NCBI GenBank assembly: GCA_043803105.1
Contig: JAZDKJ010000005.1
Span: forward strand, 1-64,000
DNA length: 64,000 bases
From: Candidatus Woesearchaeota archaeon
GTDB lineage: Archaea; Nanobdellota; Nanobdellia; Woesearchaeales; JAZDKJ01
Reading direction: 5' to 3'
Position numbers and translations under genes: made by a program. Below the pieces are notes generated by a model, which did no database searches, was not told the origin of the DNA, and saw only the letters and a program-made list of their open reading frames with translations. Position 1 is the first letter of the stretch; every line of letters starts with the position of its first letter. Positions 10,213-47,912 of this stretch are shown here, one piece after another.

Positions 10213-11481
10213 TTACTGCTTCCAATAATCTAATGCCTGCCTCAGCTCATAATGATTTCTGGAATACCTCTCAAGAGAAACATTCTTCATCGTAGCTTCA
10301 AGGGCTTGGCGAATCGCTCTTGCACCTGCAAAGGCTCCTTGGGGATGACCAAACAAGCCGCCACCAAACTGGCAGATGATGTTCTTTCCCAAAAGCTTGA
10401 CAATGCTTGGCAACAATCCTGGATGAAGGCCCCCTGAACAGACAGCAAAAACAGGCTTGACATTGCCCCAATCCTGCTCAAGGGCATGAGCTGACTTTGT
10501 GGGATGGAAAAATCCTTTCTCTATCTCATCCTCAATCTCTTCAACCTCGAGAGCAGAGCCTTCCATCTTACCTACAATCGTGCCTATGTGAAGCTGGTCA
10601 ACACCGACAAGACGGCATACCTTGCTCAAGGTAAGCATTGAGATGCCATGTCGCTTGTTCCTGGTCAGGGCAGCGTGGCCTGCACGATGGCCGTGGATGA
10701 CCATATTCAAGTCAAATCCCCGTACAGTCTGCAAAGCAGACCAGCCAACAGTAAGGACATCAACCATGATATACTCGCCAGAATACTGCTTGACAAACTC
10801 AGCCCTCTTCAGCATCTCGTCAGTCTCTGCAGTAATGTTAGGCATGTAGAACTTCCTCTCTCCGGTAATTGACTCTGCCTTATCACGCATCTCCAAAGTC
10901 TTCCTTATCCTATCCTCAAAAACATTAAAGTTCTGGCTGGACAGGTTCTCATCATCCTTGACAATATCCATGCCACCAACCCATGCATCAAAGGCAACCT
11001 TTGCATGCTGGTCAGAATTAAGGCCAACCTTGGGCTTGACAATGGTGCCAACAAGAGGTCTTTTCTTGATGCCAGAAAGCTTCCTAATGCCGTCGATGCC
11101 ATAGAGAGGACCGGCAAAGGAGTCAACGATGCACTTTGGAAAGCGAATATCCTCAAGCCGCAAGGCATCAACAGCCTTCATTCCAAAAACATTGCCTGCA
11201 ACAGAGCTTAAGATCTGAGGCATGTTGCCTCGCTCAAACAATGCAGAGGGATAAGCAATCTTGACCAACCTGTTCTTTGCGTCGATACTATATATATTAG
11301 GCTTAAGCTTCTTGGCTATCTCCTTATTCATCGTGGAAAGGTCAGTCCATGTGCCAATAGAGGATTCTGCAGCAATATGCTCAGATGCCTTCTCAATGCT
11401 CATGCCGTTAGGCTCAATATAGTATTCACAGAGCAAATCATCAGAACCAGGCTTGTACTTAAGATCAATATACTCGAGCAC
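10213..11481 (-). CDS. rbcL: Form III RuBisCO large subunit
   Basis: AESSIGTW, GTIVKPKVGL, KDDEN, HRAGH, HIGT..GKM, SGGLHPG, QFGGG..GHP; catalytic residues intact. Confidence 0.95.
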   Translation of the reverse strand: MLEYIDLKYKPGSDDLLCEYYIEPNGMSIEKASEHIAAESSIGTWTDLSTMNKEIAKKLKPNIYSIDAKNRLVKIAYPSALFERGNMPQILSSVAGNVFGMKAVDALRLEDIRFPKCIVDSFAGPLYGIDGIRKLSGIKKRPLVGTIVKPKVGLNSDQHAKVAFDAWVGGMDIVKDDENLSSQNFNVFEDRIRKTLEMRDKAESITGERKFYMPNITAETDEMLKRAEFVKQYSGEYIMVDVLTVGWSALQTVRGFDLNMVIHGHRAGHAALTRNKRHGISMLTLSKVCRLVGVDQLHIGTIVGKMEGSALEVEEIEDEIEKGFFHPTKSAHALEQDWGNVKPVFAVCSGGLHPGLLPSIVKLLGKNIICQFGGGLFGHPQGAFAGARAIRQALEATMKNVSLERYSRNHYELRQALDYWKQ

Positions 11482-19907: not shown

Positions 19908-20001
19908 AAAAAAAAAGACACGCATCTTGCCAGTTTAAGCGACAGGCCATGATAAACTATATATAGTATAAAACCTAACAAAAAGGAAAAAGAGGAACAA
20001 G

Positions 20002-21636
20002 ATGAAGGTAAGTGACGCAAAAAGGATATCACAGGTAACAAGGGTTCTATTCAAGTATGGACTAGGATACGTAATAGAAGAGCTCGGGCTAAAACTGCAT
20101 CTGCCATTTTTGCATAAGATGATGAAGCACAGGTTCAGGCCTGTGGCAAAACCGCAAGAAAGGATTGTGCCAATACTTGAGGAGCTCGGGGGAACTTATG
20201 TAAAACTCGGGCAGCTTCTAAGCATCAGGCCTGACTTGATACACCTGGATATCTGCAGGGAATGCGAAAAACTTCAAGACAATGTAAAACCGTTGGCATA
20301 CACAGAAATACAGACAGTGATAGAACAGGAATTCCACAAGCCAATAAACAAGATATTCAAGACATTTCACAAGGAGCCAATAGCGTCGGCAAGCATAGGA
20401 CAGGTGCACGAGGCAACTCTGGCAGACGGCACAAGGGTTGCAGTCAAGGTGCAAAGGCCTCACATACGCGAAATAATGGCAGCAGACATTGATGTGATGG
20501 AATACTTTGCGGCCAAGATGGAACATAATGCAAGATTCAGGAAGTATCGGCCGAGACTCATAGTAGAGGAATTCAAGAGATACAGCAAGAATGAGCTTGA
20601 CTACATCCAAGAGGCACACAATGCAGAAAGGTTTTACAACAATTTCAAGGATTCAAAGAACATAAAGATACCAAGAGTGCTCTGGGACCACACAACTGAC
20701 AAGGTGCTCACCCTAGAATTCATTGATGGAAAAAAGATAAAAGACCTTAAGGAGAGCGAGGCTGAGAGGAAACGAATAGTCAAGAAAGGGCTTGAAGCAG
20801 AATTCAAACAGATATTCGAGGATGGATTCTTCCACGCAGACCTTCACCCTGGCAACATACTGCTCATGAAAGACGGCAGGATAGCCTTCCTTGACTTTGG
20901 GATAGTAGGCACAATCACACCAACAATACAGAGAAGGTCTGTTGAGCTGTTCCTTGCAATAATGGAAAAAAACAGCGTTGAAACAGCGAGGACACTACTG
21001 AAAGTGGGCATTCCAGGCAAGAACCTGGACAGGAAAAAGTTCGGCGATGAAGTGGATGATGTTGTAAACGGATGGTACGGCAAGAGGCTCTCAGAGCAAA
21101 GGGTGACACACATGCTGCACCAGCTTTTCAATGTGTGCGCTGACAACGACGTAAGGGTTCCAATCGATTTGGTGCTCTTGGGCAAGGCCCTGATAACAAT
21201 CGAGGGAACATGCCAGAAGCTAGAGCCCAGCTTTGATATTGCAAAGTACAGCGAGCCTTACCTAAAAAAAATAGTCGAGACAGAGGCAGACCATGAGATT
21301 GAGCAACTGGGAGACCTGTATAAAAGAATGAGAGGGGCACTATTAGACCTGCCTGAGAAAGTGGACAGCATAATCGCAAGACTCAAGGATCCAAAGGTAA
21401 AGGTGGACATAGACGACTCAGACATAATGAGGCTCGGGATGGAGATAGACAAATCCAGCAACAGGCTATCATACGGAATACTAATCGCAGCGCTGGTGAT
21501 TGCAGGCGCTTTGATGGCACCGATGAAACTCGGCTACGAAATAGCAGGGCTGCCTTTGGTGTCCATGCTATTTTTTGCAATAGCAGCAATCATGGGAACA
21601 ATCTTATTGTACTCTGTACTAACAGAAGGCAAATGA
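20002..21636 (+). CDS. AarF/UbiB/ABC1 family atypical kinase
   Basis: LGGTYVKLGQLLS.RPD, ASASIGQVH, VAVKVQRP, FFHADLHPGN, LDFG; two C-terminal TM helices. Confidence 0.92.
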   Translation: MKVSDAKRISQVTRVLFKYGLGYVIEELGLKLHLPFLHKMMKHRFRPVAKPQERIVPILEELGGTYVKLGQLLSIRPDLIHLDICRECEKLQDNVKPLAYTEIQTVIEQEFHKPINKIFKTFHKEPIASASIGQVHEATLADGTRVAVKVQRPHIREIMAADIDVMEYFAAKMEHNARFRKYRPRLIVEEFKRYSKNELDYIQEAHNAERFYNNFKDSKNIKIPRVLWDHTTDKVLTLEFIDGKKIKDLKESEAERKRIVKKGLEAEFKQIFEDGFFHADLHPGNILLMKDGRIAFLDFGIVGTITPTIQRRSVELFLAIMEKNSVETARTLLKVGIPGKNLDRKKFGDEVDDVVNGWYGKRLSEQRVTHMLHQLFNVCADNDVRVPIDLVLLGKALITIEGTCQKLEPSFDIAKYSEPYLKKIVETEADHEIEQLGDLYKRMRGALLDLPEKVDSIIARLKDPKVKVDIDDSDIMRLGMEIDKSSNRLSYGILIAALVIAGALMAPMKLGYEIAGLPLVSMLFFAIAAIMGTILLYSVLTEGK

Positions 21637-21645
21637 GGTGAGAAC

Positions 21646-21894
21646 ATGTTAAAACAAGCAAGAAAAGGAGTAAGAGCTGGAATCAATGCAGGAAGGAAAA
21701 TCGGAAGGCTCGCAAGAAAAGAGATTGGGAGACCGATCATCAAGAGAGCAATAAGGAAAGGGAGGTCAGTCGCAAGAATAGGCATGCGAAAGGCGAGGCC
21801 TCTAATCAGGGAAGCTATAAGAAGAGGAAAACCTGCTGCAAGAAAAGCGATCGGCATAGCAAGAAAAGAGGCAAAAAAAGTCTTTAAAAAATAA
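21646..21894 (+). CDS. Small, very basic protein with 11-residue repeats
   Basis: RBS GAGGTGA; 31 of 82 residues are K/R and 3 are acidic; A-ending codons as in neighbouring plus-strand genes. Confidence 0.75.
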   Translation: MLKQARKGVRAGINAGRKIGRLARKEIGRPIIKRAIRKGRSVARIGMRKARPLIREAIRRGKPAARKAIGIARKEAKKVFKK

Positions 21895-45322: not shown

Positions 45323-47083
45323 ATGAAAAAACAGCTAGCGTTAATGATTCTGTGCTTGTTGCTCTTGACAGGAGTTGCATCAGCAAAGCAAGGCCACCTT
45401 GTGCTCCTGGCAGTCCACCAGGAGGACGGAGAGCAAATAGGCGCAACAGCTGACCTTAACCTTGAGATAAAGCCTGGAAACGGCAACGTGTACCTAAATA
45501 CAGTACCGTTGACACGAATCGATACGCAGATTTCTACAAGATTTGCAAAAGACATAGCCTGTAGCTATCTTGACATGGACTGTAGGGGATATGATTTCTT
45601 CTACAGTATAAAAGCTGACTCGAGCATAGTAGGAGGACCAAGCGCTGGTGCGGCAACAACAGCACTCACAGTATTCCTCTTAAACAACATGAAGTATGAT
45701 GAAAAAATCATGGTAACAGGAACGATCAACTCAGGAGGAATAGTGGGGCCTATAGGCGGACTGGAGGCAAAGCTTCAGGCAGCATCAAAAGTCATCGGAG
45801 CCAAAAAGGTGCTAATACCAATGGGAGAGAGATTCATCAAGGAAGGAAACCAGACAAAAGACGCTGCGGTCTACGGCCAGAACCTCAGCCTTGAAGTTGT
45901 TGAGGTTGCAACAATAGATGATGTTGTGTACGAGTTCACAGGCAAACACATCAAGCCAAAAGAGCAAAACCTGACAATTGACCCAAGCTATCTTGACACA
46001 ATGAAAAACCTTGCAACACAGCTATGCAACAGAACGGGAATGCTAGCCAACCAAGCACAGGAGAAGACGGGGCTTGCCACAAGACTAGGAAAACCGTACA
46101 TAGACAATGTCAAAGCAGGAAAAAACCTGACAGCGAGGGGAAGGGTTGCAATCAACAACAGCTTCTATTATTCAGCAGCATCATACTGCTTTGGAGCAAA
46201 CGTCAGATACCAAGAGATCATACAAAGGACCCTAAACGGAAGCGAACTTGCAGATGCAATCAACGAAACAAATGAGAGCATCAAGATATTTGAAAAGGAA
46301 CTTGTGGCAAGGCAGTTGAATACTATAACAGACCTGCAGGCATTCATGGTTGCATCTGAGCGGCTAAATGAAGCAAAGGAGCAGCTCGGGCTGGCAGAAA
46401 GACAGAATAATAGTAAGGCAGAATATCTTGCGCTTGCAATAGAGAGGCTGCAGAGCTCACATGCATGGAGCAGGTTCTTTGGAAACTCTGGAAAAGAGTA
46501 TATACTAAACCAAGAGGTGCTAAAAGGCTCGTGCCTGGCAAAGATCGCGGAGGCTGAAGAGAGCTACCAGTATGCCACACTATACTTACCAAACCTGCTT
46601 GACTCAGCTGCAACAGATATCAGTGATGCGTACAAGTTCTTAGCCAACAAACAATATGCGCTCTGCCTTTCAAAGGCATCAAACGCAAAGGCAAACGCGA
46701 ACTCTGTCTTAGGCGTAATCGGCGTGCAGGAAGACCAAGTGGAAACATTGATCGACGAAAAGCTTGACGTAGGCAAACAGCTCATAATAAAACAGGCAAA
46801 AGACAACAGCTTCCCAATACTCGGATATAGCTACTGGGAATATGCAACTTCGCTCAAGGCTTATGATAAGTATTCAGCACTACTGTATTCTGAATATGCG
46901 CTGGAGCTCTCAAACCTGGACATATATTTCCAGAAAAAACAGATGATAAAGATTGAGATAGACCCGACCTTTTACTGGGTGTTTGCACTCGGATTATTCA
47001 GCGGGATACTCATTGGTTGGAGAATCAAGGCAGGGCATCGCAGCGGGAAGAGTAATAGGAGCCGCAAGGTTGGGAAAAAATAA
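45323..47083 (+). CDS. Archaeal S16 (Lon C-terminal-like) secreted serine protease
   Basis: Signal peptide, GGPSAG (Ser), TGTIN.GG.VGPIGG..AK (Lys), helical domain, C-terminal TM helix. Confidence 0.88.
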   Translation: MKKQLALMILCLLLLTGVASAKQGHLVLLAVHQEDGEQIGATADLNLEIKPGNGNVYLNTVPLTRIDTQISTRFAKDIACSYLDMDCRGYDFFYSIKADSSIVGGPSAGAATTALTVFLLNNMKYDEKIMVTGTINSGGIVGPIGGLEAKLQAASKVIGAKKVLIPMGERFIKEGNQTKDAAVYGQNLSLEVVEVATIDDVVYEFTGKHIKPKEQNLTIDPSYLDTMKNLATQLCNRTGMLANQAQEKTGLATRLGKPYIDNVKAGKNLTARGRVAINNSFYYSAASYCFGANVRYQEIIQRTLNGSELADAINETNESIKIFEKELVARQLNTITDLQAFMVASERLNEAKEQLGLAERQNNSKAEYLALAIERLQSSHAWSRFFGNSGKEYILNQEVLKGSCLAKIAEAEESYQYATLYLPNLLDSAATDISDAYKFLANKQYALCLSKASNAKANANSVLGVIGVQEDQVETLIDEKLDVGKQLIIKQAKDNSFPILGYSYWEYATSLKAYDKYSALLYSEYALELSNLDIYFQKKQMIKIEIDPTFYWVFALGLFSGILIGWRIKAGHRSGKSNRSRKVGKK

Positions 47084-47170
47084 CAGAATGATTATAAAAC
47101 CCAACTCGCAAGCTTTTTTTGCTCACGCAAAAAAACCTTGGAAAAATAACCAATGATTATAAAACCCAAC
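47073..47170 (+). repeat. ~31-bp direct repeat flanking a hairpin
   Basis: GGAAAAA(A)TAAC..AATGATTATAAAACCCAAC at 47073 and 47140; TTTTTTTGC-TCAC-GCAAAAAAA lies between. Confidence 0.75.
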
Positions 47171-47303
47171 AAGCATCTCCGAAGAGATGCTCGTCGGGAA
47201 AAAGAGGTGATCATGAAGGGTTTTTAAAACCCGGCAGCCACCCTTTGCAGGACAGCTGCAGGGAAAAAGAGGTGATAGATTGTGAAGCACCCCCAACCCT
47301 ATC
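47160..47303 (-). ncRNA. Putative small RNA with four hairpins and two AUCACCUCUUUUUCCC motifs
   Basis: Minus-strand BRE/TATA (AAAAGTTTATATA, 47340-47328); 15-bp stem with two G-U pairs and a cUUCGg loop (47165-47198); repeated 16-mer; U-rich 3' flank. Confidence 0.55.
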
Positions 47304-47387
47304 TTTACTATAGAGTGGTATAACTAATATATAAACTTTTCGATGTTGTATCATTCAAAAGTGGTAACTAAGTAATACTATTTCATA

Positions 47388-47912
47388 ATGAAACAAACTC
47401 AATGCCTAAAATGCCACAGAAAGGCAGAGGCTCTTCTGCTTTGCAGAGCCTGCTTTGGCACAACAATAGAGAAAAGAATAAGGAAATATGTCAGAATCAA
47501 CAAGATATTCTCAAGGGGTGACAGAATAGCAGCAATAGGAGAGATAAACCAGTACCTAATTCCAAGAATAATCCCTGGGTTGCCTGTAAGGATATTCAAG
47601 AAAGAGCAAAAAGGGACAAAGGTTATAAGGAACTGGACAGCAGATGATGAGGCATGCGCGTTCCTTGAACAGGTGTTTACAGGAAAAAAGAGCAAGAGAC
47701 CACTGTCAATAGTGAATTGGACTACTGACAAAGAACTTGAGAGCTTTGCGAAATTCAAGGGCTTGAAGTTCAAGCCAAACAAGAAAAACCAGGATATACT
47801 TAAAATGTTAAACACACTTGAAGAAAAACACCCTGAAACAAAATTCTCCCTGATAAAGAGCAGCCAAGAACTGGAAAGGATTGGGATAAAGCGGAAAAAA
47901 TTGATTTCTTAA
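47388..47912 (+). CDS. Hypothetical protein resembling a reduced TtuA/Ncs6-like fold
   Basis: N-terminal CxxC...CxxCF..IEKR, WTADD, PL...DKEL..FA, L..LE.KHP. Confidence 0.55.
   Translation: MKQTQCLKCHRKAEALLLCRACFGTTIEKRIRKYVRINKIFSRGDRIAAIGEINQYLIPRIIPGLPVRIFKKEQKGTKVIRNWTADDEACAFLEQVFTGKKSKRPLSIVNWTTDKELESFAKFKGLKFKPNKKNQDILKMLNTLEEKHPETKFSLIKSSQELERIGIKRKKLIS

Follow-up and report, generated by a model that had tools for sequence, protein, structure and literature searches.

Here we analysed a stretch of 64,000 nucleotides (nt) of DNA from a Candidatus Woesearchaeota archaeon (assembly GCA_043803105.1, contig JAZDKJ010000005.1, positions 1 to 64,000, called the window from here on) and found that the intergenic region at 47084-47387, flanked by two plus-strand genes, holds on its minus strand what is almost certainly a genuine, conserved RNA gene. 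The RNA family to which it belongs is undescribed, has no Rfam match and occurs in nearly all members of this class of archaea, which have small genomes (DPANN-type). Each family unit is composed of a single-stranded pyrimidine seed, (AU)CACCUCUUUUU(CC), a hairpin and a short U tract; the hairpin is variable in sequence and its base is formed by CC(C) of the seed pairing with a 3' GG(G). In the window two such units stand in tandem behind one regulated-looking promoter made of a transcription factor B recognition element (BRE) and a TATA box. The anatomy of the gene, its conservation, the covariation of its stem, its strand and its complementarity to ribosome-binding sites in use are direct observations, and we consider it moderately probable that the RNA acts in trans by masking ribosome-binding sites of the AAAAAGAGGUG type.

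An earlier note on this DNA, made from the letters alone, had read on the minus strand a BRE/TATA upstream of 47303, two motifs resembling the 16S 3' tail, a hairpin before the first motif and two between the motifs, and a final 15-bp stem with G-U pairs, a UUCG loop and a U-rich tail. Most of this anatomy held. The promoter is where it was placed and the predicted RNA start falls at 47305-47303, approximately 23 nt past the TATA (all coordinates of the locus are read on the minus strand and are collected in Table 1). The two motifs are exact 16-nt copies of ATCACCTCTTTTTCCC lying 65 nt apart; with up to two mismatches this motif has three matches in the window, a number reached by none of 100 shuffles, and its exact form occurs in the whole genome of 1,564,226 bases in two copies, both at this locus. 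Each module has a hairpin after its motif, with a CCC/GGG base followed by U4, and the second hairpin has the 15 bp including G-U pairs, the UUCG loop, the U4 and a later U5 run. The supposed hairpin before the first motif, however, is the pairing of GGGGUG in the leader with CACCUC of motif 1, which partition-function calculations give a probability of 0.98-1.0, while motif 2 is predicted to be free with a mean unpaired probability of 0.91. The folding energy is -64.3 kcal/mol on the minus strand (z = -5.7) against -49.2 kcal/mol on the plus strand (z = -3.7). Hairpin and U tract together make a terminator-like 3' end, and as judged from its letters the locus would be a transcription unit of its own.

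Further evidence for an RNA comes from its relatives. A blastn-type search of 40 relatives, each from another family of the same order, matched the module 2 region in many of them, and the matched loci share the promoter, ATCACCTCTTTT(T)CC, a hairpin of differing sequence and then GGGTTTT. Alignment of 106 modules yielded a consensus stem of 12 pairs, 11 of which keep pairing through changes on both sides. Paired stem cells amount to 90.1% in these 106 sequences compared with 66.0% after shuffling, and the covariation score of 0.716 was reached by none of 500 shuffles (0.248 when shuffled) nor by the control in which one arm was slid by 1-3 columns (at most 0.252). The earlier note had named covariation and conservation in relatives as checks and had held that the wobble pairs work on one strand only, and both points were borne out: the stems contain 190 G-U pairs against 17 A-C pairs, so that the structured RNA is the strand with AUCACC, which is the minus strand at this locus. 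The seed accounts for 15 invariant columns of the alignment, partly fixed by the search pattern; outside the pattern search, CACCUCUUUU is also kept in the blastn and model-based matches, divergent members keep CACCUCUUUU(U)CC while their flanks vary, and a CGCCUC variant of the seed appears in one genome, G093.

The locus matched none of the known classes with which it was compared. A scan of the whole window with Rfam 15 at gathering scores gave no match, and that of 46950-47450 at an E-value threshold gave best scores of 9-21 bits compared with gathering scores of 42-141, which is noise, so that the known family with another role that the earlier note had allowed for did not appear. A fragment or pseudogene of 16S rRNA was rejected, as the window has no small-subunit rRNA match and the only 16S of the genome lies on another contig with its own tail. 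C/D box small RNAs carry a C box RUGAUGA near the 5' end and a D box CUGA near the 3' end; neither box is among the conserved columns of the 106 members, and CAUGAUCA in module 2 of the window is not conserved. A plain intrinsic or bidirectional terminator was rejected on the invariant seed columns together with the presence of a promoter for 95 of the 106 modules. We also discarded the idea that the leader masks the seed throughout the family: a G-rich stretch is found in the leader, near the 5' end, in 17 of 39 long-form relatives, and the mean pairing over these 39 long forms is 0.39 versus 0.34 for shuffled leaders, so that leader-seed pairing is strong in the window although it is no feature of the family.

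To follow the family among genomes we built a covariance model, R1, from the family unit (seed, covarying hairpin and U tract). At E <= 0.001 this model finds the RNA in 138 of 151 sampled genomes of the order, with 1-4 matches per genome (107 of 115 high-quality genomes and 130 of 143 genera), and by table count 123 genomes have matches at E <= 1e-8. The 138 of 151 includes three genomes flagged unpublished (G112, G121 and G132), the figure being 135 of 148 without them. In other orders of the same class, sampled at phylum level, R1 matches 29 of 34 genomes. The 98 family loci gave 111 matches, the strongest 107 scoring 46-73 bits and the four extra ones 27.5-42.6 bits. In five unrelated genomes picked for having the exact seed by chance R1 scored 22-41 bits at those sites, so that weak matches are to be read with care; this is no fair test of false positives. 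One such weak match, of 16.9 bits, lies in the window at 19966-19995 on the minus strand, antisense to the start region (aaaaaggaaaaagaggaacaagATG) of a gene for 544 amino acids that begins at 20002; this gene is among the best predicted seed partners of the genome (-18.9 kcal/mol).

An exact-pattern scan over one genome per prokaryotic species returned at least 118 loci. The titles of the matches listed are Woesearchaeota, Nanoarchaeota, Nanobdellota, Nanoarchaeia or Pacearchaeota in 68 cases, 'uncultured Methanosarcinales archaeon' in 32 and bacterial in 16, with one Methanolobus and one unspecified archaeon. The stretch from CC to GG folds at -10 kcal/mol or below, again among the matches listed, in 72 of 74 with titles of the Woesearchaeota/Nanoarchaeota type and in 35 of 35 with 'Methanosarcinales' titles, as opposed to 5 of 16 bacterial ones and neither of the two from Methanolobus and the unspecified archaeon. 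The 32 'uncultured Methanosarcinales' loci (for example L026, L040, L042 and L043) are probably mislabelled, because they have the same RNA, promoter boxes and Lon-like neighbour as the records titled Woesearchaeota. A record titled Candidatus Staskawiczbacteria bacterium (locus L127) has a full family member with promoter, seed and a hairpin of -20.4 kcal/mol, and is probably an archaeal contig binned with a bacterium.

For 95 of 106 modules the 200 nt upstream contain TTTAWAWA on the strand of the module, compared with 77 of 1070 random positions of the same loci, and the spacing between TATA and seed shows clusters of 18-24 nt (17 modules) and 29-30 nt (12 modules). Archaeal transcription starts about 23 nt past the TATA, and given this spacing the seed of the short forms would lie at or within a few nt of the 5' end of an RNA of about 55-60 nt; long forms such as that of the window have leaders of 20-60 nt. 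The consensus of 82 family promoters (loci L022-L139) reads tttGTTACYACTYTAAAATACT ... aaAACCGAAAGn-TTTAWATA-ttAGTtctACTAYtcTAtAGTAGTAACA, with two related boxes around the core promoter, TTACYACTYTAAAAT on the 5' side of the BRE and ACTAYTCTATAGTAGTAACA between TATA and start. Related boxes on both sides of the core suggest regulated transcription, and TTACYACTYTAAAAT / TACTAYTCTATAGTAGTAACA look like a candidate transcription-factor site. That the boxes belong to the small RNA alone was rejected: a few further promoters of the genome (for example C6:451514, C6:436030 and C12:169766) have related ...TAGTAGTAACAaaatc-GAAA arrangements, so that the factor would not be private to the RNA. The same two boxes are also found at C8:2567(-), before an apparently leaderless mRNA for a membrane protein with a signal-peptidase-like sequence, whose ATG is 19 nt past the TATA and whose first codons, UAUUGGGGGUGG, resemble the leader of the small RNA.

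The resemblance of the seed to the 16S tail, claimed in the earlier note, can be stated precisely. The genome's own 16S ends in ...GGAUCACCUCC, followed by U8, and hence AUCACCUC is common to the seed and the tail, with a U run after both. Seed and tail differ in that the seed is preceded by a promoter rather than by helices 44 and 45, and in that one C is missing. The 16S gene itself drew our attention: on contig C8 of genome G000, at about 151655-152520 and outside the window (L021), it is interrupted after ...TTGCACACACCG by approximately 0.87 kb, and the canonical last 48 nt or so (AAGTCGTCACAAGGTA...GGATCACCTCC) resume near 152529. An intron encoding a homing endonuclease is suggested by an open reading frame (ORF) of 169 amino acids in the insert, which has the LAGLIDADG-like motif LVDGEGSF; the Rfam match reports model positions 1-1478 and ends at 151702, and thereby hides the interruption.

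Genes led by a Shine-Dalgarno (SD) sequence are a minority in this genome, as AGGTG stands 3-10 nt before the start codon in only about 137 of 1586 long ORFs. The core of the seed, CACCUCUUUUU, is the exact complement of AAAAAGAGGUG, which is the ribosome-binding context favoured in the lineage. We counted patterns followed by N4-9 and ATG in the same 151 genomes of the order. AAAAAGAGGTG gave 636 matches in 136 genomes, AAAAGGAGGTG, the continuous complement of the 16S tail with its U run and thus the best fit to 16S, gave 80 matches in 55 genomes, and AAAATGAGGTG gave 110 in 70. By these counts the context favoured is that which complements CACCUCUUUUU exactly, and the sole base at which the seed departs from 16S (U for the second C) is the base that fits it. 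The AAAAAGAGGTG pattern read backwards gave about 21 matches by table count, and approximately 5% of the listed AAAAAGAGGTG rows are the antisense of the small RNA gene. Predicted duplexes of the seed on such sites reach -17 to -19.5 kcal/mol, compared with -9.7 to -16.5 for the 16S tail on the same sites (this genome).

Among 30 sampled AAAAAGAGGTG sites, 26 precede ORFs of at least 65 amino acids. These include RuBisCO, two 2-hydroxyacid dehydrogenases, a PfkB kinase, pyruvate:ferredoxin oxidoreductase (POR), a pyruvate phosphate dikinase (PPDK)/phosphoenolpyruvate (PEP)-utilising enzyme, an H+-pyrophosphatase (H+-PPase), an ODP lactamase-fold protein and DUF3467, and 17 are without Pfam match. 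Two of the GAGGTG ribosome-binding sites that the earlier note had read in the window were confirmed, that of the gene at 21646 and that of rbcL at 11481(-), which has aataaaaaGAGGTGttgttGTG. At least 9 nt of exact seed complement are present in 10 of 23 rbcL orthologs with a readable upstream region, and in 13 of the genome's 137 SD-led genes. RuBisCO was nevertheless rejected as a single conserved target: it is found in only 34 of 101 genomes of the order and cannot explain a class-wide family, and the top candidates of the genome are mixed.

According to the mechanism that we propose, the seed would base-pair with purine-rich ribosome-binding sites AAAAAGAGGUG(AU) in a duplex longer and more stable than the one formed by the 16S 3' tail, and its occupancy would keep the 30S subunit off these mRNAs and so repress their translation. 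The two modules could serve as two seeds, as in RsaE, or as one masked and one free seed. As expected of a small RNA of the sRNA41 or RsaE type, a predicted accessible motif complementary to sites in use is present, motif 2 being predicted unpaired and the 11-nt complement occurring 636 times. A bolder extension of this proposal, which we deem rather unlikely, takes the RNA for a free-standing anti-SD copy with one base tuned so that it would fit the strongest ribosome-binding context of the lineage better than the ribosome does. Induced from its operator-flanked promoter it would outcompete 16S at those sites and shift translation from SD-led genes, many of them for carbon and energy metabolism, to leaderless mRNAs. 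Symbiotic archaea with reduced genomes would then share, throughout the lineage, a switch of translational state that might be coupled to host contact or energy supply.

A number of observations weigh against masking of ribosome-binding sites in trans. The trans-acting, site-occluding RNA of the earlier note finds support in a minus-strand gene with promoter, in class-wide conservation, in the complementarity to used sites and in the presence of an Lsm/Sm gene in the genome, but of the two motifs that the note had supposed displayed only the second is predicted to be exposed, the first being masked by the leader. No specific conserved target was established, and the best candidates in the genome are of mixed function (MarC, PurD, a KaiC-like ATPase, a DNA methylase, an integrase-like protein and unknowns). 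Outside the locus, no copy of the full 16-nt motif with up to two mismatches was found beside a start codon in the genome, as read by eye, and the neighbouring genes p586 and p174 were rejected as targets, neither having an SD-like or complementary site upstream. The AAAAAGAGGTG context is also independent of the RNA. Genome G054 has no R1 match and yet has 10 sites; the motif is missing from 15 genomes and the RNA from 13, with only two genomes in both sets, and among the 151 genomes lack of the RNA was not found to go with lack of the context. An A-rich stretch before the SD is in addition typical of strong unstructured starts, so that the complementarity could be a by-product, and a class-wide invariance of 13-16 nt exceeds what seed pairing with many mRNAs needs. 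The CGCCUC variant of G093 is not accompanied by a matching change in its 16S tail; this tail is normal, and covariation of seed and tail was rejected on 16S 3' ends found in only two of the five genomes tried. Finally, that the RNA is transcribed and pairs in vivo, in which direction it acts and which genes form its regulon are all matters that we infer.

That invariance of 13-16 nt would fit a conserved protein or ribosome partner better than many mRNAs. The RNA could mimic the 3' end of 16S or pre-16S and bind a protein rather than mRNAs, titrating or regulating it, the candidates being factors that act on the 16S tail in small-subunit maturation or initiation (a Dim2/Pno1-like KH protein, the endonuclease Nob1), a Sm-like protein or a nuclease attacking the anti-SD. 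We regard this as unlikely, but it has several points in its favour. Archaeal Dim2 binds a GGAUCACCUCC fragment, the seed is the 16S tail over AUCACCUC, the seed with its U run resembles the precursor ...AUCACCUCC followed by U4-U8 in G000, G093 and G114 with one C differing, and the genome has an LSM (Lsm/Sm) gene. Against such mimicry, the h45 hairpin that precedes the 16S tail is absent and the hairpin of the RNA lies on the other side of the motif, and the one base that differs from 16S exactly fits the favoured ribosome-binding context. Pairing of the RNA with another RNA, a partner small RNA or leader with GGGGGUG or GAGGUG for which it would be a sponge or cross-talk partner, appears very unlikely. 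The pairing of motif 1 with GGGGUG within the locus and the G-rich stretches of the long-form leaders agree with it, whereas the pairing of leader and seed is no feature of the family and no second conserved RNA with the complement was found, nor one in the pre-16S leader of the genome. Pairing of the seed with this pre-16S leader in a U3-like role was rejected as well: the leader beside the 16S 5' end pairs with the trailer and not with an SD-like stretch, and the best seed duplex in it (-14.5 kcal/mol) lies approximately 400 nt upstream of the 16S start.

The convergent gene p586 offers another explanation, in which the element would act in cis, as an antisense transcript or shared terminator controlling the 3' end of p586, and its anti-SD likeness would be incidental. 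Of the 98 family loci, 50 have a homolog of p586, which lies directly downstream and convergent in 43 and overlaps RNA modules on the opposite strand in five more, and the third hairpin of the 3' extension has T7 on the plus strand with A7 opposite, as expected of a two-way terminator. We consider this explanation quite unlikely, as 36 loci lack a homolog of p586 even though their downstream side offers 1500 nt or more, genomes hold 1-4 copies of the RNA, the RNA has a strong promoter of its own, and an antisense or terminator role would not keep a single-stranded stretch of 13-16 nt invariant while the stem varies freely. The alternative put forward in the earlier note, that the motifs are ribosome-binding sites on the plus strand for micro-ORFs encoding MKGF and MKHPQPYLYYRVV, is largely refuted. 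Both micro-ORFs exist with good spacing from GAGGTGAT, an ATG follows GGTGAT by 0-6 nt on that strand in 28 of 107 modules, and five closely related short forms give similar peptides of 20-21 amino acids. The other 79 modules, however, have no such ATG, the peptides (1-39 amino acids) are not conserved and the similar five read through the conserved promoter, the excess of G-U over A-C pairs puts the structured RNA on the other strand, and the promoter is oriented to the minus strand.

Masking of ribosome-binding sites, the explanation that we prefer, has parallels among known small RNAs. The sRNA41 of Methanosarcina mazei is described in a review as an archaeal intergenic trans-acting small RNA proposed to repress translation by masking ribosome-binding sites, also within polycistronic mRNAs (PMC5867862), and it resembles the family in being archaeal and in this mode of action. 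It is known from one genus whereas the family spans a class, the two being compared by description and Rfam only, and the new family has a seed that copies the 16S tail at or near the 5' end. RsaE/RoxS of Firmicutes binds SD regions through duplicated identical C-rich motifs, blocks initiation and has targets in central metabolism (PMC6158497). The likeness lies in a conserved small RNA with two motifs and in the RuBisCO, 2-hydroxyacid dehydrogenases, PfkB, POR, PPDK/PEP enzyme and H+-PPase among the ORFs with complementary sites, but RsaE is bacterial, unrelated in sequence (no Rfam match) and has CCCC-type loops instead of a 16S-tail copy with a U run. Cyanobacterial Yfr1 is an RNA of 54-69 nt, nearly ubiquitous in its phylum, with an unpaired ultraconserved 11-nt pyrimidine-rich ACUCCUCACAC (PMC2190773). 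It is similar in size, in lineage-wide spread and in its ultraconserved unpaired pyrimidine stretch, although this stretch is placed there between two stem-loops, while the minimal form of the new family is a 5'-terminal seed with a single hairpin; Yfr1 is moreover bacterial and has no sequence relation. Judging from these comparisons, the family appears to be a member of none of sRNA41, RsaE/RoxS and Yfr1.

A literature search, with subscription journals and supplements outside its reach, yielded no account of an RNA like this one in DPANN, Woesearchaeota or Nanoarchaeota, nor of any regulatory RNA for these uncultured genome-reduced archaea. Present in about nine in ten of the genomes searched across the class, the family ranks, housekeeping RNAs aside, with the most widely conserved small RNAs of archaea, and its seed links it directly to translation initiation. 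A minimal RNA of 55-60 nt is a simple and testable handle on the control of protein synthesis in organisms with very few transcription factors, and R1 can be used at once for annotating the RNA in metagenomes and seeking it in metatranscriptomes. If the favoured context indeed fits a small RNA better than the 16S tail, this would bear more generally on the evolution of SD usage.

Table 1. Features of the small RNA locus and its two flanking genes (positions in the window)
Feature	Position	Strand	Basis or remarks
Upstream promoter box GTTACCACTTTTGAATGAT	47350..47368	-	Sequence; family consensus tttGTTACYACTYTAAAATACT, ends ~12 nt 5' of BRE
BRE cgaaaag (47342-47336) and TATA TTTATATA (47335-47328)	47328..47342	-	Sequence; consensus archaeal BRE/TATA
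Box between TATA and predicted start, ATACCACTCTATAGTAAA	47305..47322	-	Family consensus ACTAYTCTATAGTAGTAACA; possible operator
5' leader, G-rich, GGGGUG at 47293-47288	47277..47304	-	Predicted pairing with CACCUC of motif 1
Module 1: AUCACCUCUUUUUCCC 47276-47261, hairpin 47263-47230, U4 47229-47226	47222..47284	-	R1 57.2 bits, E = 8e-16
Module 2: AUCACCUCUUUUUCCC 47211-47196 (predicted single-stranded), hairpin 47198-47165, U4 47164-47161	47157..47219	-	R1 62.3 bits, E = 2e-17
3' extension: tail AUAAUCAUU, U5 run 47146-47142, third hairpin 47140-47109, second copy of 24-nt tail	47087..47156	-	Direct and inverted repeats
p586, convergent neighbour	45323..47083	+	Only recognised domain Lon S16 protease (Pfam Lon_C E = 5.7e-8); outside the RNA
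p174, divergent neighbour	47388..47912	+	N-terminal CxxC...CxxC; weak NcsA/TtuA-like C-terminal end

In the case of the flanking genes, the arrangement of p586 and the RNA holds over p586 identities of 37-54%, with gaps that are mostly of 16-250 nt. A p174 homolog is present in 21 of the 98 family loci, always upstream and divergent and at 72-334 nt. The NcsA/TtuA-like stretch at the C-terminal end of p174 is faint (E = 0.003 and 0.55), and no PP-loop domain was recognisable in this protein. The gene-order counts for both neighbours thus suggest p586 -> <- RNA, p174 -> as the ancestral site, the copies at other places being additional.

The element extends past 47160, where the earlier note had ended it. 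Its 24-nt tail is found in two exact copies (47175-47152 and 47110-47087) that are 65 nt apart, which is the spacing of the seeds, and on the plus strand this direct repeat reads AATGATTATAAAACCCAAC..GCA. The 3' extension is likely a two-way terminator shared with p586, a function suggested by its repeats, and this 3' part has the look of a third module that has decayed and taken on such a role.

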